IMG/VR virus record: IMGVR_UViG_3300033067_002132
Coordinates: 64,001 to 128,000 of that record
Origin: a virus
Taxonomy: Duplodnaviria; Caudoviricetes
Length of the DNA: 64,000 nucleotides
Reading direction: 5' to 3' (one strand)
The position numbers and the translations under genes are program-made. Each line of letters starts with the position of its first letter. The first letter of the stretch is position 1. This document shows positions 4,923 through 21,607 of the stretch, piece after piece. The notes under the pieces were generated by a model that was not told the origin of the DNA, made no database searches, and saw only the letters and a list, made by a program, of their open reading frames with translations.

Positions 4923-5001
4923 ATTGGAGCCCGCATACGTGGCCCCCGGCGAACATGGGATACCGGGAATTAAAATGCGAAAGTTGTTCGTTGGCTCCAA
5001 T
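4923..5001 (+). ncRNA. Pseudoknotted RNA directly 5' of tRNA-Ile2
   Basis: ATTGGAGCC/GGCTCCAAT, CGCAT/ATGCG, CCCGG/CCGGG; loop CGAACA pairs with TGTTCG. Promoter TTGACG 4888 / TAGGGT 4911 puts +1 near 4923. Confidence 0.7.
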
Positions 5002-5004
5002 TTC

Positions 5005-5081
5005 GGACCTTTAGCTCAATTGGTTAGAGCGAAGCACTCATAATGCTTGGGTTATAGGTTCAAGTCCTATAAGGTCCACCA
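5005..5081 (+). tRNA. trnI: tRNA with CAT anticodon, most likely Ile2 (lysidine type)
   Basis: Perfect cloverleaf, GGACCTT/AAGGTCC acceptor typical of bacterial Ile2, loop CT-CAT-AA, ACCA end. Confidence 0.9.
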
Positions 5082-5100
5082 ATTTCAAAAAAAAATATTT

Positions 5101-6026
5101 ATGACTAATTTAGATATCATTCAAGCTTTTTCGGCGGCGGATATTCTTTGTGCAAACGATGATATGGCGGCACAAATTAATAATCTTTCTATTCAAGAAT
5201 TAAAAGATTTAATTTTGATTTGGAAGGGTAAAAGAGATGATCCTTCTGTTAAATCGATGGTAGAATTATGTCTTGAAGATTATCTTCACGAAAAAGAAAA
5301 GATTTTTCTCGTAGCAAAATTTAAACCTTTTATTTCACAATTTACAAAAGAAGAAAAAGAATTAGTTAAAAAACATATTAGTGGATGGGCTTTTGGTTTC
5401 TTCGGAAAACTACTATAATAAAAAAATATGAAAATGATTATCTCTAAAACCGTGGTCGATGAAATTTGTGCAAGGAAAATGTCAAAACTCGCCGAAGTAA
5501 TGAAAGATGAACTTGAACGAGATATTATTGTAAAATATGAATTTACTTTAGAGGAACAAATTTCGTGTCTTCGGAATTATTTGATGGGATTACTTGGCAG
5601 TATTGTAGATGTTAATAAAGTCGAGTTTATTATTGAAGAAGAAAAAGAACAAACAACGGGACAATATACGGTTATTTATTCTCATGGGGGACTCGTTCTT
5701 AAAAAATATGTTACTTTAGATCCTACAAAAGATCCATTTCCACAAATTTTAAATAATTATCAAATTCATCCTGGAAATATCTGGTTTCTTTTTGAAGGGT
5801 GGGCTAAAGAGGTATAAAAATGAACATTTCATCTAATCTTTTAAGTAATCAAAATTTACATAAGAAAAAACAAGTTGCTATCTATATTTCTGTAGATGAA
5901 GAAGAAGAAGAAGATATTCTTCCGCTTTTAGAAACAATTTGTATAAATACTAAAGTCTTTCATCATCCGATTCAAGGTATTACAATAGCTTCTAAAGGAA
6001 TTGTAGAAATTAAACGAAATTATTAA
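5101..6026 (+). other. Three hypothetical CDSs (5101-5418 with start corrected out of the tRNA, 5428-5817, 5820-6026)
   Basis: ORF track. Confidence 0.7.
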
Positions 6027-6030
6027 GAAA

Positions 6031-6303
6031 ATGAAAATCATCGGTGTCGTTATTAAAGATACTTGGGGAAAGACTTGGAAGCTACCCGCACCAAATCGTC
6101 ATGCCGATTTAATTCAATTAATGGTGAAAACTTATATTTCTACTACAGGCAAAGACGAAACGCCCAAAATACTGTTCCAAGGATTCTATACCGACACCGA
6201 TGAAATTCTTTCGAGAACTGATGCTTATCAATTAGTTAATACAACTGGACAAAAAATTATTAATCGCCCGAGTCAGCAATTATATAGCGAAGATTTGTGG
6301 TAA
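6031..6303 (+). CDS. Conserved phage hypothetical protein
   Basis: RH...QGF...R.DA...LYSEDLW pattern recalled from phage proteins. Confidence 0.65.
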   Translation: MKIIGVVIKDTWGKTWKLPAPNRHADLIQLMVKTYISTTGKDETPKILFQGFYTDTDEILSRTDAYQLVNTTGQKIINRPSQQLYSEDLW

Positions 6304-6312
6304 GTTTTAATA

Positions 6313-6436
6313 GTTAATGTAGAAAATTGGCAAATCAGGGGGTTTGTACCGAAAACAGAAATCACAGGGAAGACCGCCGATTAATGATATAGCTGTTAGA
6401 CATTAATTTATGTAGGTTCGACTCCTACCATTAACT
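6313..6436 (+). ncRNA. Class II (Leu/Ser-like) tRNA scaffold with a 25-nt anticodon loop
   Basis: GTTAATG/CATTAAC acceptor, D-loop TTGGCAAA, long variable stem ATTAATG/CATTAAT, T-arm GTAGG-TTCGACT-CCTAC. Confidence 0.75.
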
Positions 6437-6478
6437 ATTTCTTGACTTATTTTTTTTCACTGTTAGGATTAATCCAAT

Positions 6479-6989
6479 ATGAATCCAACTAGACGAATTA
6501 CAAGACAAGAGGAACGGATAATCGATGGAAAAACCTTTATTTTAACTAAAAATGAGGAAATGAATTATAGTGGAGAATGGGAAGAAAGCGGATTCGATTT
6601 AATTATTGGAGGAAAAATTGTACAAACTTTTATTTGTTATCCATTCGACGAGTGGATTCTTGCCGAATTAAAAAGATATGTTAAGTGAAAAACAAGATTT
6701 TCTACTTTATTGGAAGCGTCGCCGTCGCGAACTATTAAACGCTCTTAATCATTATATTCAAGATAAAGGATTATCTTTTGGTATAATGGCAGGGACTTTA
6801 TTTAAAGACGATAAACATAAAATCGTCGATTTAATAGAAGATAAAACTATCGAATTGTATTTGACATTTCTAAAAAACATTGATAAACGTATTGGTGAAT
6901 TAGGACATCCAACATTAGAACAATCTGAATTTTTTAGAAACTTTAATATCAATTACTATAACTTTTTGAAAAATACTTTTGAATTTTAA
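6479..6989 (+). other. Two hypothetical CDSs (6479-6688, 6678-6989)
   Basis: ORF track; promoter TTGACT 6442 / TAGGAT 6464. Confidence 0.65.
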
Positions 6990-7158
6990 AATTTATGGTT
7001 AAATATTCAATTTACGAAGTCTTTTTTAAAAGAGAAAATTATCGAAATCGCCATTATGTATTAAATCATTTATTTACTAAGAGCGAAATCGAAAATGTAT
7101 TAAAAGAGATTGACAAAAAGGGAAAATTCGAAGATGATCGATATTCAATAACGATTGT

Positions 7159-7371
7159 ATGAGAAAACGAAGACGTAATACTCCAAAAGAAATTGAAAAT
7201 TTGAAGAGGGTTCAAGCTTCAAATCCTGATAAATTAATTTATACTTCTTGGTTGGATCAATCGTATAAAGAGAGATGGTGGGTCTCGCCAGCTAAACAAT
7301 TTGATTTTAGTAAATTCGATACTCTTTTTTACTCTTTAAAACATCCAAAAGCACCCGTAATTAAATTTTAA
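7159..7371 (+). CDS. RxNTxxE/NPNK/LK[RH]P family paralog 1
   Basis: RRNTPKE..NPDKLIY..YKERW..FYSLKHP. Confidence 0.85.
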   Translation: MRKRRRNTPKEIENLKRVQASNPDKLIYTSWLDQSYKERWWVSPAKQFDFSKFDTLFYSLKHPKAPVIKF

Positions 7372-7374
7372 TAT

Positions 7375-8766
7375 ATGAAGGAAAATAATATCTATTTGGT
7401 TTCAGGAAAACGCGCTGATCTAATTCAAGCTATTTCTTTTTGGTTAGGAACCGAAAATAAAACAATACATCCTAATTTAGATTATCTTATTCATGGTAGC
7501 GATTATAATGATCTATATACTCTCGCTATTCTTTATGTAGATGAAACAGGTAAAAAAGAGTCCTTTCTTTCTTTTAATACAGAAGAAGGTATTTATTCTT
7601 TTTTTAGTTCTCATTCGTTATACAACGAATATAAGAGAATTAAATTTGACGGATATATTAATTTTCGTAAGTTTCTCGAAAATAAAATGACACAAAAGTA
7701 TGAAATCGGCGATATATTTTCTTATGGAGAATCGCCCGATAAAAGATATTTTATGCTTTGTACCAATTACGCGGGTCAATTTTTCTTTATTAATTTAAAT
7801 ACTTATACTACTGTCACAGCTTTTGATAATATTGATGATGTTTTTAGAAATACTTTTTACGGTGATCTAGTCTATGTAGGTAAAATTGGTGACTTTTTAA
7901 AGACTTAAATCTAATAAACATATGCTAGCTTTTCCTGGTATGCTAATTCCCGCCGCCGAAAGGGCGAAAATGAAGTGTCCAAAAGACGCTGATAAATTTG
8001 ATAGAAATGAATTTCCTCATTTTTATGTTTTTTGTATGATGCAATTAGGGCGCTCATTAGTTAATAGTTCCTCTCACTGGTCTAACGCCGAAATCATTGC
8101 TAAAATTCCTGACGACAGCATTAAAACCGTTACGCCTGCCGAACTATGCGAAATGGGTTTCGTTTAATTTAAATTAATATATGAAAATTACCGTAAAAGA
8201 AAATAAAGAAGGAAAATCCTCAAAAGTTTTTCCTATTTTGATGGAAAGTACATCAACAAATAATATTTATTTATTCCTTAATCCAAGGGAAGCGATTCCT
8301 TTAGTAATAAAAAATGGTGGTTATGAAATAGGCGAACGTATTGAAGCAGATTTTTATAATGCTCTTAAATGGGTGCGATTTTGCGGCGCAATTACTTTAG
8401 AGAACGACTAATTTTATGAAAAAAGAAGTTATTTTAAATACGGCGCGAAATACAGTAAATATTAATGAAGTTAATACAGATAAATTGTATTTACTTACAG
8501 AACCAAGTGGAAAACCAATTGGTATTTTAACAAGTGCTTCATATGTTTGTGTTTCAGATAAGAAAGATTTAGGTAATTACTTTTTTATATCATTAGACGT
8601 GGGTTTTACGCGAAGAAATGGTTATTATACTCAAGAATATAATGATACTAAACAACTTTCTTTAAAAGAATATTTTACTAAGTTTAATAGTACAACGGGA
8701 AGAAAAATTTATCAATTTGATACGTTTAAGGAAATAGCGGAATATATTGTAAAATATGAAGAATAA
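7375..8766 (+). other. Four hypothetical CDSs (7375-7908, 7922-8167, 8181-8411, 8416-8766)
   Basis: ORF track, packed operon. Confidence 0.7.
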
Positions 8767-8919
8767 TATGAAAAAATTTATATATTGTTATCGCAAAATC
8801 TATGCTCTAGATTATATACAAAAAGAATTAAATACAATGGGTGATGAAGGATGGGAATTAGTAAATGTTATTTATCAAGATTGTTTTTATATTGCCTTTT
8901 TTAAGAAAGAGATTTAATA

Positions 8920-9129
8920 ATGAAACGTCGATTTAATACAAAAGCGGAAATCGCCGCGCTGAAAAGAATTCAGAAATCTAACCCGAATAAAAGAGTTTAT
9001 ATTTCTGCTGTTGCAAATCCATATAAACTTCCTTGGGTTCCTTGGTTTATTAAAGATCTTCAATTAGATAGTTTTAGTGGTTGTTTTTATTCATTAAAAC
9101 GTCCAAAAGCACCTGTCTTGAAATTTTAA
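8920..9129 (+). CDS. Family paralog 2
   Basis: RFNTKAE..NPNKRVY..YKLPW..FYSLKRP. Confidence 0.85.
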   Translation: MKRRFNTKAEIAALKRIQKSNPNKRVYISAVANPYKLPWVPWFIKDLQLDSFSGCFYSLKRPKAPVLKF

Positions 9130-9145
9130 TAAAATTATTCAATTT

Positions 9146-9364
9146 ATGAGGCGAAAAAATACACAAACAGAATACGAAAATTTATTAAATGTTCGCGCCC
9201 GAAATCCTAATAAATTAATCTATTTTAATTGTCCTGATCATAAATATAAAGAAGGTTGGTGCTTTGCAAAAATAGGCGCATTAAGAGATTTTTATATTGA
9301 TATGTTATTTTATACTCTTAAGCGCCCCAATACTAAAATGAAAATGTCAGAATATAAATTATGA
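9146..9364 (+). CDS. Family paralog 3
   Basis: RKNTQTE..NPNKLIY..YKEGW..FYTLKRP. Confidence 0.85.
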   Translation: MRRKNTQTEYENLLNVRARNPNKLIYFNCPDHKYKEGWCFAKIGALRDFYIDMLFYTLKRPNTKMKMSEYKL

Positions 9365-9594
9365 GAAATAATACAATTAAAGAATTAAAAGAATTAGATA
9401 GGGCGCGGCGCGAAACGCCAAACAAACGTGTTTATTTCAATTTAAAATTAAATAGATATTCTGGCGGATGGTGTTCTGATATATTAAAAAATATAGAACT
9501 TCCAAGATTTCGTCTACATCCTGTGCAATTACATAATTTTTACACCTTGAAACGTCCACACGTTAGGGAAATTTCTAAATGCGATAATTGGTAA
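9361..9594 (+). CDS. Family paralog 4
   Basis: RNNTIKE..TPNKRVY..YSGGW..FYTLKRP. Confidence 0.85.
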   Translation: MRNNTIKELKELDRARRETPNKRVYFNLKLNRYSGGWCSDILKNIELPRFRLHPVQLHNFYTLKRPHVREISKCDNW

Positions 9595-9598
9595 TTTT

Positions 9599-9823
9599 AT
9601 GCTAAGAAAAAATACTCCTGAAGAAAAGGTTTTACTAAGAAAGATTTTTAAAGAAAAACCTAATAAATTAGTCTACATTAATTATATCGAAAATTCTTAT
9701 AAATCAGGATGGTATAAGGTGAAAATCGGCGCCCTTAATCATGATGTAATTAATAATATGGAATTATTCTTTACTTTAAAACACCCGAAGGTGAAGAAAA
9801 TTAGACAATATACATTAGAGTAA
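9599..9823 (+). CDS. Family paralog 5
   Basis: RKNTPEE..KPNKLVY..YKSGW..FFTLKHP. Confidence 0.85.
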   Translation: MLRKNTPEEKVLLRKIFKEKPNKLVYINYIENSYKSGWYKVKIGALNHDVINNMELFFTLKHPKVKKIRQYTLE

Positions 9824-9825
9824 TT

Positions 9826-10086
9826 ATGATAAGAAAGAATACACAAGAAGAAATAGAAAATTTAAAAAGAGTTTGGGCGCAAAATCATAAAAAACTCATT
9901 TATATAAATGCTTGTATAAATCCTTATAAATACGGATGGAAAAAATACTATATAGGTGAATTTTCATACAACGAATTAATTACTTTTTTAAATAGCGGCG
10001 ATCTTTTCATTACCTTAAAAAGACCTAATTCAAAAAATATTCGCGACTTGACCTGTACAAAAGAATACGCTATCATTTATAGATAA
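9826..10086 (+). CDS. Family paralog 6
   Basis: RKNTQEE..NHKKLIY..YKYGW..FITLKRP. Confidence 0.85.
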   Translation: MIRKNTQEEIENLKRVWAQNHKKLIYINACINPYKYGWKKYYIGEFSYNELITFLNSGDLFITLKRPNSKNIRDLTCTKEYAIIYR

Positions 10087-10090
10087 TTAT

Positions 10091-10570
10091 ATGACTAAAA
10101 CTATCGTAAACGGACAAATCGTAGAACAGCCCGCGCAATTAAAATCAATTGAATTATTCTACGCTCTTAATCTTTCTGATAATCCCCAAAAAGCTGCTGC
10201 AAGCCCAATTAATACAGAATTTCTTAATCATGCTTTTCATATTTCTTTAGTTCATAATGGTTTGGGCGGACAAAATGATTTAATTAAAGTAATTACTTCT
10301 TCGGGCGCAATTATTTATTATGTTGGACGATGGAATGACGGTTTAGTAAATCAGCCGAAAAAGAAGCCTATTGTTCTTAAATATTTTCTTAATTATGATA
10401 AAATTATAGAAAAAGTAATTACATCTAGACCTAAAGATTTTAATTACGTCGAATTATTAGTTAAAGAGTATCTTCTGGACACTGATCTAATCTATTGTTA
10501 TCTAAATGCAGATAATAAAGGAGATGGAACTCTTTATTTAGGTCAATGGAACGATGGAATCGTGGAATAA
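10091..10570 (+). CDS. Hypothetical protein with an internal duplication
   Basis: Two halves end in YVGRWNDGLV and YLGQWNDGIV. Confidence 0.7.
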   Translation: MTKTIVNGQIVEQPAQLKSIELFYALNLSDNPQKAAASPINTEFLNHAFHISLVHNGLGGQNDLIKVITSSGAIIYYVGRWNDGLVNQPKKKPIVLKYFLNYDKIIEKVITSRPKDFNYVELLVKEYLLDTDLIYCYLNADNKGDGTLYLGQWNDGIVE

Positions 10571-10573
10571 AAT

Positions 10574-10807
10574 ATGATTAGAACCAATACCCCAAAAGAA
10601 ATCGCCGCCATCATTGAGGCGGGGCGCAAAAACCCCAACAAGATTATTTACATAAATGCCTGTGATAATCCCTATAACTCTGGATGGTTCAAACGGAAAG
10701 CAAAAGATTTTCCCGTATTTAATGAATCTCGATTTACAAATTCATTTTGTTATCATACTCTAAAATATCCTAAGATTCTAAAACGCGACAAAATCGATTG
10801 GATTTAA
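10574..10807 (+). CDS. Family paralog 7
   Basis: RTNTPKE..NPNKIIY..YNSGW..YHTLKYP. Confidence 0.85.
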   Translation: MIRTNTPKEIAAIIEAGRKNPNKIIYINACDNPYNSGWFKRKAKDFPVFNESRFTNSFCYHTLKYPKILKRDKIDWI

Positions 10808-10809
10808 TT

Positions 10810-11049
10810 ATGCTAAGATTAAACACAGAACAAGAAATCGAAGAATTAAATAGGACCTTGCGGCGCAATCCGAATAAGTTAGTTTATTATAATGCGCGCA
10901 TGAATCCTTATAATTGCGGTTGGGTAATTGCGAGAATTAAGGATATCCCTGTGAACAGTATCCCTAAACCTAAGAATTATTTTAAAATTGTTTCAGAAAG
11001 AGTCTTTTTTAGTCTAAAAAGACCTAATGCACCTATTAATGATATCTAG
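10810..11049 (+). CDS. Family paralog 8 (start corrected from 10798)
   Basis: RLNTEQE..NPNKLVY..YNCGW..FFSLKRP. Confidence 0.85.
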   Translation: MLRLNTEQEIEELNRTLRRNPNKLVYYNARMNPYNCGWVIARIKDIPVNSIPKPKNYFKIVSERVFFSLKRPNAPINDI

Positions 11050-11632
11050 AATAAAGAAACTAATATCTATTTTAGATAATTTATACTTCGGGCGCAATTC
11101 TAATAAGGAATTATTAGTTAATTCTATAGTAACACCCATTTCTGAAAACTATATTTAATCTTTTTCACACTCTTCTAGTGTGGCAAAAAGAAAAAATAAA
11201 ATAGACATAAAACAAAACAAAGAATTCTTTGTAACCTCTTGTTACTTAAGAATATATAAAAAGATAAAGAAGATAATAGAAGAGAAGAATGACTCTAGGT
11301 ATATAGAGAGAGAAAGAAAAGAATAGATAAAAGGTGATAATAAGCGGGTTTCTAGCACTTATTTAACTAAATAGCTAAAAATCGTCCCATTATTGGGAAA
11401 ATTAACAAAAAAATTGACAAAACCCCAATAAAAGCTATACTTTCACTATATGAATCGAGATTCTACTCCTACAGAGAGTGATTTGGCTGATATAGAAAAC
11501 AAAGAAGTTATTTCTAATGATTTTATTAAACTTACGCCCGAAGCTCTTAAACTTTTGAAAGAAATTTGCCGCGAAGCTAAACAAGATTTTCGCCAAACTA
11601 AAGAATCGCAACTTCCTAATAATCAATAAGTT

Positions 11633-12068
11633 ATGCACCAATTTTTCGGCGGACTATTTATAGGTTTAGTTATAGGAATTAATCTTATTTTTTGTATAAA
11701 TAATACCAACACAAAATTTCAATACAAAGAAGATTACAAGAAAGGTATCGGTCATTACGTTGTCGATCAGGCAACGGGGAAAAGTGAATTTAAATACTTT
11801 TATCAAACGAATTTTTCCGCCGCGAATAAAGAATAATAAACAATAATAAAGAATTATGAAAGATTTAACGGCTTTAGCGTTTTTTATAGGTTTTCTTTTA
11901 GGTCTAGCTTTGATGGGCGGGTTAGCACTTTCGTTCAATTATTCTTATAATAAGAAAGCTCTTGAAGTAGGAGCAGCAGAATACTATCATGCTTCGCCGA
12001 GTTCATCATCTGTAGAATTTCGGTATATCACTAACTATCAGGTACTTAGCGCCCGAACTAATAAGTAA
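11633..12068 (+). other. Two small paralogous membrane-anchored CDSs (11633-11836, 11856-12068)
   Basis: N-terminal hydrophobic helix (FIGxxxG) followed by G..[HE]Y....S.EF[KR]Y. Confidence 0.6.
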
Positions 12069-12523
12069 AAAATGAAAACTTACCGCGCCGCAAATGGGGG
12101 AATTAACGAGTATAAACAAGGAGAAAAGGATGTTACTCTGTGTGGTCTTTTTGACGTTGCTGATCTTCGTTATATTGTGGAAAAACTAGAAAAGAAAGAA
12201 GAAATTGAATTGCCGCGCCCAATTAATCGAGTAGAATTGGCCGAAAAAGGAATTAAAGATGAGTTTATGATGGGCCTATAAACAAAAAAAAATATATAGA
12301 GTACGTAACGATACCCTAAAAATCTTTTTTAAAATGTGTATCAGTAACTTTTCTTTCTTTGTTATTTCTTTGGGACTCAAGATCATTGGATTCACGCTTG
12401 GGGCCGTTTAACACGTAGCTTCGTACCCGGAATCATAATCTGCCGCTGTCAAAACTTCAAATAAATAAAAATAACCGCTGTTAGAAACTATTACAGTTAG
12501 TATAGAAATAAGAGAATAATTAT

Positions 12524-12769
12524 ATGAAAATTATCAATAAGATTAATAATACTCCGAGCTAAATTAAATCGGGAGATATCGTTTCTTGTTCTGGAACTTT
12601 ATATCTTATTTTAAAAATTACAGAGAATAATTATATTTTATATTTTCTTGATCTTAGTAAGAATTTAACGTATGCCGCGTCTGGAACTTTAGAAACATTA
12701 GTTAATCGTAATAATCTTGTTTTTGTTACCGACAATTACGATATTATTCTAAACAATCCGGCGGATTAA
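12524..12769 (+). pseudogene. Small ORF with a premature in-frame TAA
   Basis: MKIINKINNTPS*IKSGDIVSCSGTLYLIL...NNPAD; TAA at 12560-12562, frame stays open to 12769. Confidence 0.6.
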
Positions 12770-12837
12770 TAAAATATTGACTTTGTTTGAATTTGTGATA
12801 ATCTCATTGGTGAAGAAGACCCAATGACAGTCTTTTA

Positions 12838-12913
12838 TTGCTGTAACCCTAATGTCTCGATTGAGAATGCGCCGAATAGATTAGGGCTAGAAAGAAAGTG
12901 GCGAGAACAGCAA
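12838..12913 (+). ncRNA. Pseudoknotted RNA element
   Basis: TTGCTGT/ACAGCAA, CCCTAAT/ATTAGGG, TCTC/GAGA; CGCC pairs with GGCG. Promoter TTGACT 12777. Confidence 0.6.
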
Positions 12914-12922
12914 ATTAATTTT

Positions 12923-13108
12923 ATGGAAACACTACTACTGTTTATCACAATCATTTCTTGCATTTGGATCGCGCTAATGTTTTGTAGTTATATGTTATGG
13001 TTAACTACATACGGATTATCAGAAACTATTGAGAAATGTAGTGGAAATAGGTTTCTGTTATTTCTTGCCGCGATTGTTTGGGTTGCGGTTTACTATTTGA
13101 AGAATTAA
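12923..13108 (+). CDS. Small two-TM membrane protein (start corrected from 12824)
   Basis: METLLLFITIISCIWIAL...FLLFLAAIVWVAVYYL. Confidence 0.65.
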   Translation: METLLLFITIISCIWIALMFCSYMLWLTTYGLSETIEKCSGNRFLLFLAAIVWVAVYYLKN

Positions 13109-16171: not shown

Positions 16172-16894
16172 TTAAAGGATTTTTGATCCTTTTTTCATGT
16201 TTTCTTCTTTCCATAAAGGTTGCAAGTTAGTATAATGAAAACATTTATGTAAATTTTCCTCTTTTGTAAGATCAAAAGAAACACAAGGAAGAATATGATC
16301 TATTTCCCATTTTCCATAATTATCCCAAGACATATTTTCTTTAAATTTCATTTCTAGATAAGACTTAAGATAATCAATAGAACAACCAAGATAAGCAATA
16401 GTTCTCTCTCTGTTGCAATTAAAGATATTTCTAATATATTTATTTAATCTGCGGCGTAAATTAGATTTAATTCTATATTGAATATTATTCTTTCTTCTGT
16501 TTCTATACATTTCTCTCACTTTTTCTTTATTTAATAATTTCCATCGTCTTGAAGCTTCCCTTTTTATCTTCATTTTTTCTGGATTAGCATGTCTAATTAT
16601 TTTATTTTTTAGAACTTCGCATTTCTTACAATAAGGACTAAAAATTCCCTTTTTCGATTTATTAAAAAAAGATAAATCAAATAAAGTCCCACAAAATTTA
16701 CAAATTTTTTCTGTTCGTTCTTTTTTCTTTTTAAATCTTTCTCTTTCTATATTATTCCTTCTTAAAATAGAATAAATAGTAGTTTTATTTACATTAAATA
16801 GTTTTTCTAATTCTTTTCCTTTTATATTGCTTATATAAGCTTCTATTATTTGTTTTTCTTTTTCTTCAGAAGTTTTATTATGCGTTTTTCTCAT
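16172..16894 (-). CDS. HNH homing endonuclease with N-terminal HTH and Zn finger
   Basis: NMSWDNYGKWEIDHILP..FDL..CFHYTNLQPLWKEENMKK; CxxC..CxxC; GTGTAA promoter at 16903-16908 fixes the ATG at 16894. Confidence 0.85.
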   Translation of the reverse strand: MRKTHNKTSEEKEKQIIEAYISNIKGKELEKLFNVNKTTIYSILRRNNIERERFKKKKERTEKICKFCGTLFDLSFFNKSKKGIFSPYCKKCEVLKNKIIRHANPEKMKIKREASRRWKLLNKEKVREMYRNRRKNNIQYRIKSNLRRRLNKYIRNIFNCNRERTIAYLGCSIDYLKSYLEMKFKENMSWDNYGKWEIDHILPCVSFDLTKEENLHKCFHYTNLQPLWKEENMKKGSKIL

Positions 16895-16970
16895 ATAAGA
16901 AATTACACAGAAAATTAGGGTTTCCATAATAATAGTTGACACAAATGGTTTTTTGTGAGAAACTCAAAGT

Positions 16971-21097: not shown

Positions 21098-21607
21098 ATG
21101 CAAGACCTGACCGCTTCTCTCGCCGATAGTCTTTCACGCAAACACTATCGCAAGACGCCTGCCATGTTTTCCGTCATGACTCTGCGCGATAAACTTCCTT
21201 TCGATTCTAAGCCTCTCGCCGATGATCCTAATAAAATTGCCGATTATTGTCGCCAAGCAATTATTGGCAAAAAAGGGTACAATCCCGACGTGGAAAGTTG
21301 TTGGGTTATCGTAATGAATACGCGCCGACGAATTGAAGGGCATTTTCTAGTAGCAACAGGAACTCTCGACACTTTGTTAGTTCATGCTCGCGAAGTGTTT
21401 CGCGGCGCTATTCTTGCCAATGCTGCGGCGATTGTTCTTATGCATAATCACCCAAGCGGCGACCCGACTCCGAGCGAAGCTGATATCCGCGTGACCCGAG
21501 AAATGATTAGAGCGGGCCAACTACTAAAAATCGAAGTATTAGATCACGTAATTTTAGGAGAACCTAAGCATTGCTCGCTTAAGGAATTAGGGTATTTTAC
21601 TTATTAG
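21098..21607 (+). CDS. radC: RadC-like JAB domain protein
   Basis: E..W..NTRRR..GTLD..VHAREVFR.AI..NAAAIVLMHNHPSGDPTPSEAD..LDHVI. Confidence 0.92.
   Translation: MQDLTASLADSLSRKHYRKTPAMFSVMTLRDKLPFDSKPLADDPNKIADYCRQAIIGKKGYNPDVESCWVIVMNTRRRIEGHFLVATGTLDTLLVHAREVFRGAILANAAAIVLMHNHPSGDPTPSEADIRVTREMIRAGQLLKIEVLDHVILGEPKHCSLKELGYFTY

Follow-up and report, generated by a model that had tools for sequence, protein, structure and literature searches.

A lineage-restricted family of small basic proteins encoded by an array of diverged paralogs in an uncultured phage

The internal proteins IPI-III of phage T4 are small basic proteins encoded at polymorphic loci. They are packaged in the virion, and what they have in common is mainly a short N-terminal peptide for capsid targeting; one of them, IPI*, blocks a restriction enzyme. 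T4 TifA is 85 aa long, has a cluster of positive charges at its centre and inhibits the defence toxin ToxN; the copy number of its gene (tifA, gene 61.4) shifts by recombination at microhomologies of 6-10 bp (Srikant, Guegler and Laub 2022, PMC9391042). In poxviruses, the K3L gene accordion (Elde et al. 2012, as described in PMC9391042) provides an adaptive route in which a small host-interaction gene expands and contracts in tandem.

We describe here an array of eight genes for small basic proteins found in a 64,000-nt stretch (the window) of the 193,745-bp (~194 kb) genome of an uncultured phage. The array resembles tifA in encoding small, positively charged phage proteins from an accessory region and in the length of the microhomology at which copy number changes, 10 bp here. 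It would resemble the K3L accordion if its products do interact with the host. No homology to TifA was found, as an exhaustive HMMER search of 1.84 billion representative proteins returned only members of the family itself and tblastn against 50,697 phage records gave no match in cultured phages (best E-value 0.7).

Definition and distribution of the family

The first-pass annotation of the window had reported eight ORFs of 69-86 aa sharing a scaffold, five of them in direct tandem. All eight proved homologous (Table 1). The profile of the eight matched exactly eight places in the whole genome, each with an E-value of 1e-30 to 1e-32, and a broader 25-sequence profile added no further copy, so that the matches lie far beyond chance. 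No other paralog family of the genome is as large, the runner-up having 3 members, and this is the phage's only expanded multigene family. The tandem of five spans 8920..10086, its successive copies being separated by 16, -4, 4 and 2 nt, and is followed by an acidic ORF and then by two further copies in tandem. The closest paralog of the solitary 7159 copy is the 8920 copy (51% aa identity), the 3' ends of the two being 85% identical over 48 nt. The 10810 copy is taken to start at its ATG, while the mechanical ORF call starts at TTG 10798.

Table 1. Members of the family in the window, the ORF that interrupts the array and the genes that mark the locus
Feature	Position	Strand	Length (aa)	pI	Remark
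T4_Y16D-like small gene	6031..6303	+			Upstream marker of the syntenic locus in three phages
Family member	7159..7371	+	70	10.2	Solitary, 1.5 kb upstream of the array
Family member	8920..9129	+	69	10.5	First of five direct-tandem copies
Family member	9146..9364	+	72	9.7	
Family member	9361..9594	+	77	10.2	Start overlaps preceding stop (ATGA)
Family member	9599..9823	+	74	9.9	Copy modelled with the 25-sequence alignment
Family member	9826..10086	+	86	9.5	Longest C-terminal tail; last of five tandem copies
Unrelated acidic ORF	10091..10570	+	159		Interrupts the array; no family match
Family member	10574..10807	+	77	9.8	Positional orthologue L003:281-517, 46% aa identity
Family member	10810..11049	+	79	10.0	Positional orthologue L003:555-773, 46% aa identity
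RadC-like gene	21098..21607	+			Downstream marker of the syntenic locus

The array sits in the phage's accessory region of small + strand genes. A scan for promoters and terminators gave counts that were not above those of shuffles. The larger ORFs in or beside the arrays (7375 and 10091 in the window, 6567 in the related phage L004) had no homology to one another, and there is therefore no conserved partner gene. In the ORF that interrupts the array in the window, a WNDG motif is repeated internally.

Twelve columns are invariant in the alignment of the eight copies (M1, R5, N7, T8, E11, K25, Y28, Y36, W40, L60, K61 and P63, numbered on the 7159 copy), and the motif that had been read from the sequence agrees with them. 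Exact NPNK is present in five of the eight copies, a G before the W in six and LK.P in all. Across 23 members, N5, Y26, W38 and P63 are invariant and R3, T6, E9 and K61 nearly so, and the conserved basic positions are R3, K23, K61 and R/H62. The hypervariable segment that had been noticed after the W is real: 20-31 residues separate the invariant W from K.P in these 23 members, with column entropies >3 bits and with indels, and the 10810 copy has the longest segment (31 residues). The members have a pI of 9.5-10.5, compared with mostly 5-9 in the neighbouring small ORFs. Conservation among the copies is at the amino-acid level. The eight ORFs are real, expressed-type protein genes of one lineage-restricted family, since their frames are all intact despite saturated synonymous sites (dS >1), their conservation is at the protein level and their AlphaFold models are confident.

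The first reading had recognised no known domain, and our searches agree with it. Pfam, PHROGs and NCBIfam gave nothing below an E-value of 0.04 and PADLOC gave no match for 25 members, so that known defence and anti-defence families are without a match in PADLOC, Pfam and PHROGs. AlphaFold produced a model with a pLDDT of 88.4 from 8 sequences and of 92.4 (pTM 0.79) from 25. The latter, for the 9599 copy, has helices at residues 7-19 and 48-52 and strands at 24-29, 38-42, 56-59 and 68-70. Foldseek found no match at E <0.3 in PDB and BFVD, leaving this confident model without a convincing structural relative there. With VIA-align against 48,161 chains and a re-look, the top hit was a sub-domain of ATP-grasp enzymes (TTLL6) at Z 4.4, which is below the usual background, and therefore no fold was assigned. 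The ESM Atlas gave no usable match by features, and its structure matches were ignored because the Atlas models this protein poorly (pLDDT 0.46). The 69-86 aa members lack conserved Cys/His residues and any conserved set of acidic catalytic residues, and the proteins are predicted to form a compact, non-enzymatic alpha+beta module.

Word-index protein searches were insensitive for this family, and the exhaustive HMMER search was used instead. It recovered 19 proteins, all of 69-86 aa and none fused to another domain. Eight were the window's own, and the 11 further members, all of 69-83 aa, came from around five related uncultured phages. Pattern scans of IMG/VR and JGI metagenomes with single-protein and 4-sequence queries found nothing, no member was present in 81 IMG/VR RadC loci (1.2 Mb in total), and the phage terminase likewise had no close relative in IMG/VR. 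As far as these databases reach, the family appears to be confined to a handful of related phages. In three of them the locus is bounded by the same T4_Y16D-like and RadC-like genes (L001:8265-8528 and L004:5073-5618 for the former, L001:18758-19276 and L004:13255-13785 for the latter).

Copy-number turnover, age and selection

In this phage and its relatives, the arrays at the syntenic locus number 8, 12 and 3 copies, and at least 2 in each of two others, the first three numbers belonging to the phages in which both bounding genes are present. A more direct view of this variation comes from L089, a relative of L001 at 80-90% DNA identity, in which several copies are missing. L089 retains a truncated chimeric remnant of 35 codons that is joined exactly at AACGCCCGCA, a 10-bp microhomology between two paralogs which occurs in L001 only at 10082 and 11160, both within family genes. 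Copy number thus changes between these close relatives via a short homology, as in a gene accordion, and this supports the view that copies are lost or gained through recombination between paralogs. The first-pass annotation had proposed a gene-accordion expansion that should show as copy-number variation among relatives; such variation is present, because the arrays differ in size and L089 has deleted copies.

The remainder of that proposal, recent amplification under diversifying selection, fared less well. Pairwise identities among the window copies are 28-51% at the amino-acid level and 46-59% at the nucleotide level, and dS is >1 or not computable for nearly all pairs of paralogs; the copies are ancient. 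This is not the pattern of a recent, near-identical amplification. The family tree is mostly unresolved, with the pair 7159 and 8920, two L001-specific clades and a few cross-phage pairs. The dN/dS values of the window paralogs, and those against the L003 positional orthologues, were not used as synonymous sites are saturated. Two orthologue pairs were usable and gave an omega of 0.18 and 0.26, although the test has low power because there are only two pairs, with dS of 0.6-1.0. After the W, omega was 0.10-0.19 (0.19 for E_835 versus A_9765 and 0.10 for E_1194 versus A_11457), compared with 0.32-0.34 in the N-terminal part of the same two pairs. In these two pairs the orthologues are under purifying selection, variable segment included, and each copy seems to be kept for its own sequence since omega is low overall and lower after the W. 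Turnover is therefore supported. A recent accordion is not, because the copies are old, and neither is ongoing diversifying selection, because their orthologues are constrained.

These results also set the locus apart from the systems introduced above. The amplified copies of T4 tifA are unstable and identical to one another and emerged under laboratory conditions, whereas the copies described here are ancient and each is maintained by purifying selection. TifA has a known target in ToxN, while partners for this family are only proposed below. Similarly, the K3L accordion consists of transient near-identical copies, whereas the paralogs of this array are old and diverged and form a standing set.

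Candidate roles of the family

The narrow distribution, the differing array sizes, the deletion in L089 and the rank of the family as the largest in its genome give it an accessory, fast-turnover character. We tentatively favour, at somewhat short of an even chance, a reading in which the members are accessory proteins that interact with the host, together forming a toolkit of small binders that serves host takeover or counter-defence; T4 TifA offers a precedent. The scaffold, with its N-capped helix, its LK.P turn and a small sheet organised about the invariant Tyr and Trp, carries the paralog-specific segment of 20-31 residues plus a variable tail and would display the variable segment for binding, so that every copy would have its own partner in the infected cell. 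Three parts of this proposal are inferred: a binding role for the proteins, specificity set by the variable segment, and host or defence components as partners. Three observations argue against it. No known anti-defence or defence family in PADLOC, Pfam or PHROGs matches the proteins. The purifying selection on orthologues, seen in two pairs at dS 0.6-1.0, is unlike the signature of an ongoing arms race, and the high pI together with the conserved basic positions fits nucleic-acid binding at least equally well.

The main rival is indeed that the proteins bind nucleic acids, either as RNA chaperones or regulators or as DNA-coating proteins, with a conserved basic face that binds and a variable segment that tunes the target, which could be the phage's many structured RNAs. 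The charge of the proteins relative to adjacent small ORFs and the conservation of R3, K23, K61 and R/H62 are consistent with such a role, and the window does contain tRNAs, tRNA-like RNAs and a Pistol ribozyme. The first-pass annotation had suggested a partnership with ncRNAs nearby, but no tRNA or Rfam RNA lies within ~10 kb of the arrays of the related phages. Like Hfq/Sm proteins, the members are basic, of ~70 aa, and are predicted to place an N-terminal helix before a small antiparallel sheet, and Hfq/Sm structures recur among the weak fold matches (Z 2.2-2.8, rmsd ~3 A over 46-51 residues, or 2.5-3.6 A over 44-51 residues when all such matches are taken). However, a Z <3 is background, the best unrelated match being at 4.4, and the model has four predicted strands where Sm proteins have five. 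Pfam detected no Sm1/Sm2 motifs in the family, and domain and PDB-sequence searches detected no known RNA- or DNA-binding domain. On balance we consider nucleic-acid binding rather unlikely.

A packaged protein that is injected with the DNA, as are the T4 internal proteins, would combine a conserved part for packaging with a variable part as effector. The family is, like IPI, IPII and IPIII, small, basic, multi-copy and strongly variable from one related phage to another. Its homology spans the whole protein, however, and not just an N-terminal targeting peptide, no protease-site pattern is evident and nothing indicates packaging or cleavage. The array also has tRNAs and small accessory genes as its neighbours, at a distance of 16 kb upstream from the terminase and structural block, and we regard this role as very unlikely.

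A last candidate was a truncated SH2-like module akin to the second SH2 domain of eukaryotic Spt6, whose ligand would be a (phospho)peptide, such as one on host RNA polymerase. The top PDB sequence matches of the family profile are five yeast Spt6 tandem-SH2 entries (E ~0.03, 17 bits), although the five belong to a single protein family and were picked post hoc. The alignment pairs T6, the NPNK loop, Y26, N32 and G-W38, so that the likeness to the C-terminal SH2 of Spt6 (PDB 3psj, 3psk, 2l3t) is local, covering helix A and strands B-C with exact NPNK, Y and GW. An hhalign comparison with a yeast Spt6 alignment gave a probability of 49% (P 1.7e-4) over 36 columns, but these scores are inflated because both sequences are Asn/Lys-rich. 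Pfam SH2_2 (PF14633) finds nothing in the genome at E-values up to 10, hmmscan of the members at E-values up to 1 gave no SH2 match, neither Foldseek nor VIA-align listed an SH2 structure, and the model has no C-terminal helix that could be the second SH2 helix. With PF14633 negative, no fold match and the second helix missing from the model, the Spt6 lead is most improbable.

A more specific version of the binder toolkit, conceivable but doubtful, is that an undescribed small fold serves as a diversifiable binder scaffold. The phage would maintain a standing library of 3-12 paralogs, each with a conserved specificity loop. Microhomology recombination at GC-rich islands within the genes would reshuffle this library, which would neutralise changing host defences or takeover targets.

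The protein family is new and well defined. Few orphan small genes of large phages offer comparable internal evidence, which here comprises a confident fold prediction without structural match, 8-12 old and intact paralogs and a recombination event caught changing copy number. If the members are RNA binders, they become candidates for the protein partners of the phage's unusual structured RNAs. If they do bind host or defence components, the family would represent a natural scaffold-plus-variable-loop system and a new source of counter-defence or takeover proteins.

Identification and predicted fold of the family

The eight ORFs 7159, 8920, 9146, 9361, 9599, 9826, 10574 and 10810 (named by start) are intact and can be aligned end to end, with 12 invariant columns (M, R, N-T, E, K, Y, Y, W, L-K and P). 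A profile built from the eight sequences matched exactly eight places in the whole genome, with E values of 1e-30 to 1e-32 each, confirming the first-pass annotation that they form one homologous family. No extra copies were found with a broader profile in the 193,745-bp genome (rated complete by CheckV in its IMG/VR virus record), and an all-against-all comparison of 331 ORFs identified this family as the largest paralogous set, the runner-up having three members. As also proposed, five copies lie in direct tandem, running head-to-tail from 8920 to 10086 with spacing of -4 to 16 nt. They are followed by an unrelated ORF and then two further copies, and the 7159 copy sits 1.5 kb upstream of the array. 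The family proteins have a pI of 9.5-10.5, compared with 5-9 for most small ORFs nearby.

The product of the unrelated ORF matched no Pfam or PHROG family and is unrelated to the larger ORFs interrupting the arrays of L001 and L004, contigs of related uncultured phages (Table). It carries a G-R/Q-W-N-D-G-L/I-V motif twice, once around residue 80 and once at the C-terminus.

Nineteen proteins were recovered at E below 1e-3 when 1.84 billion representative proteins were searched with HMMER, eight of them the window's own; all were 69-86 aa long and none was fused to another domain. The remaining proteins were placed on L001, on L004-L006 and on L003, L007 and L089 (Table). The family was not found in cultured phages, in 81 IMG/VR loci carrying the RadC gene that neighbours the copies (1.2 Mb) or in pattern scans of IMG/VR and JGI metagenomes. 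Pfam, PHROGs, NCBIfam and PADLOC returned nothing for it, in line with the initial failure to recognise a known domain. This family of small basic proteins is new and narrow in distribution.

Family members and features of the array region (window coordinates unless a contig is named)
Feature	Position	Family copies	Description
Window phage		8	
L001	9498-12076 (ten contiguous); near 8026 and 4861 (divergent)	12	ENA phage contig, 171.7-kb
L004-L006		3 (L004)	JGI and Logan contigs of one second phage
L003, L007, L089		at least 2 each (L003, L007)	three short Logan contigs
Array-splitting ORF	10091-10570		159 aa, acidic, internal repeat
3' ends of 7159 and 8920 copies	7326-7373; 9084-9131		85% identical over 48 nt
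phrog_28963 match	7922-8167		81-aa ORF, E 3.5e-24, unknown function
Sigma-70-like site	11414-11441		TTGACA, 16 nt, TATACT; 11/12 matches
HTH_28-type paralogs (minus strand)	window 16172-16927; genome 40878-41510; genome 51381-52028		three members
HTH_28-type homologue	L001:4129-4833 (-)		~1 kb from IS605 OrfB/TnpB-like gene, L001:1878-3011
Short DNA match	1448-1486; L001:1638-1679		83% identical

Among 23 members drawn from six phages, no variation is seen at N5, Y26, W38 and P63 (numbering of the 9599 copy), and R3, T6, E9 and K61 are almost invariant. The segment running from the W to the K.P motif (K61-P63) is 20-31 residues long; it contains indels, its column entropies are the highest, and a tail of 7-19 residues follows the P. 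AlphaFold2 gave confident models from 8 sequences (pLDDT 88.4) and from 25 (pLDDT 92.4, pTM 0.79). The predicted secondary structure has one helix at 7-19 whose N-cap is the N-T..E motif, a second, short one at 48-52 that falls in the variable stretch, and strands at 24-29, 38-42, 56-59 and 68-70. Foldseek against PDB and BFVD gave no match at E below 0.3. In VIA-align against 48,161 chains, the top Z was 4.4, to a sub-domain of ATP-grasp enzymes, and Hfq/Sm rows were numerous at Z 2.2-2.8; since these values fall under the tool's stated background, no fold was assigned. The predicted fold is confident and has no match in the structure searches.

Copy turnover and maintenance of the paralogs

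T4_Y16D-like and RadC-like genes bracket the copies in the window, L001 and L004. The family tree is poorly resolved; its L001-specific clades and the window 7159+8920 pair indicate some duplication within lineages. The 3' ends of that pair are far more similar than the remainder of the genes, pointing to later duplication, or to gene conversion, of their C-terminal part.

L089 is one short metagenomic contig that shares 80-90% DNA identity with L001, and it carries in order orthologues of L001:8756-9013 and of the L001 9765 copy, a 35-codon ORF and an orthologue of the 11457 copy. The first 31 codons of the short ORF match the L001 10001 copy, and the breakpoint lies exactly at AACGCCCGCA. 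Within the 20-kb locus of L001 this word has just two sites: one at 10082, falling on codons N-A-R of the 10001 copy, and one at 11160, on codons K-R-P-H close to the end of the 10943 copy. The differing reading frames at the two sites account for the early stop, and a junction at a word common to two paralogs indicates that, compared with an L001-like arrangement, L089 has lost several copies through recombination at a 10-bp microhomology. A mis-join is unlikely, as assembly k-mers are much longer than this word, although the event is seen on one short contig. Copy number at the locus changes by recombination between copies.

In the window, GCGC density is 6.5 per kb inside family genes, compared with 1.9 per kb across the 8 kb around them. 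The GC-rich 12-mer TTGCGGCGCAAT or its variant TTCGGGCGCAAT occurs at 8381, 10300, 10858 and 11087, within or beside family genes in this 28% GC region. These words may be recombination or regulatory sites; short GC-rich words enriched in family genes would favour events such as that in L089.

Synonymous sites are saturated in comparisons of the window paralogs with one another and with L003, the nearest relative, whose positional orthologues are only 46% identical to the window copies. Values of dN/dS (omega) could therefore be derived only from two L089/L001 orthologue pairs. These gave omega values of 0.26 (dS 1.02) and 0.18 (dS 0.61), with 0.19 and 0.10 after the W versus 0.34 and 0.32 before it; an unrelated neighbouring gene gave 0.27. 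Each copy, including the part first described as hypervariable, is thus conserved once established, which does not support the diversifying selection originally proposed. Variation resides between paralogs, not within orthologues, and the paralogs are old and individually maintained. The proposed gene accordion holds for copy turnover, seen in the differing copy counts and the L089 deletion, but not for recent amplification, given the saturated synonymous sites.

Genome setting

The window covers bases 64,001-128,000 of the viral record, and GC content is about 28%. Small ORFs are packed on the + strand from 5,000 to 13,000, with tRNAs among them, and terminase and structural genes start ~16 kb downstream of the array region. 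Each family ATG is preceded by A/T-only bases, and all lack a Shine-Dalgarno motif (window 8880-11050); hosts like Bacteroidota typically show this absence, which may be a clue to the host. The phrog_28963 ORF is the sole neighbour with a strong family match, and is therefore commoner among phages than the array. The last family gene is followed by ~400 nt with weak ORFs only and then by the region's best sigma-70-like site, where a new transcription unit probably begins. The HTH_28-type proteins may constitute a family of regulators or of mobile-element proteins. The short DNA match to L001 connects an ORF-free gap of the 172-kb phage with the large RNA candidate region of the window, which is likewise devoid of ORFs, and at least one non-coding element may be common to both.

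Possible functions of the copies

Our tentative proposal is that the copies are a set of small binders serving host takeover or counter-defence; the segment specific to each paralog would decide which partner is bound. It draws on the accessory location, lineage restriction, gene turnover and absence of catalytic residues, and on a precedent, T4 TifA (gp61.4), which inhibits a defence toxin. Like the family, TifA is small and positively charged, and its copy number shifts at microhomologies (PMC9391042). Nucleic-acid binding, the main rival, is compatible with the binder proposal; we consider it rather unlikely. The basic charge and the RNA-rich neighbourhood in the window phage speak for it, and it is weakened by the arrays of relatives, near which tRNA or Rfam RNAs were not found, and by a Sm-like resemblance that is insignificant. 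Packaged internal proteins are a minor alternative. An SH2-like module is very improbable: yeast Spt6 tandem-SH2 entries rank first among PDB sequences (E 0.03), with the NPNK loop exact and T, Y, N and GW positions shared, but hhalign gave a probability of 49%, the Pfam SH2_2 profile found nothing in the genome, no fold search returned an SH2 structure, and the AlphaFold2 model lacks the second SH2 helix. The array represents a solid new orphan protein family, for which we tentatively favour a function as small binders.
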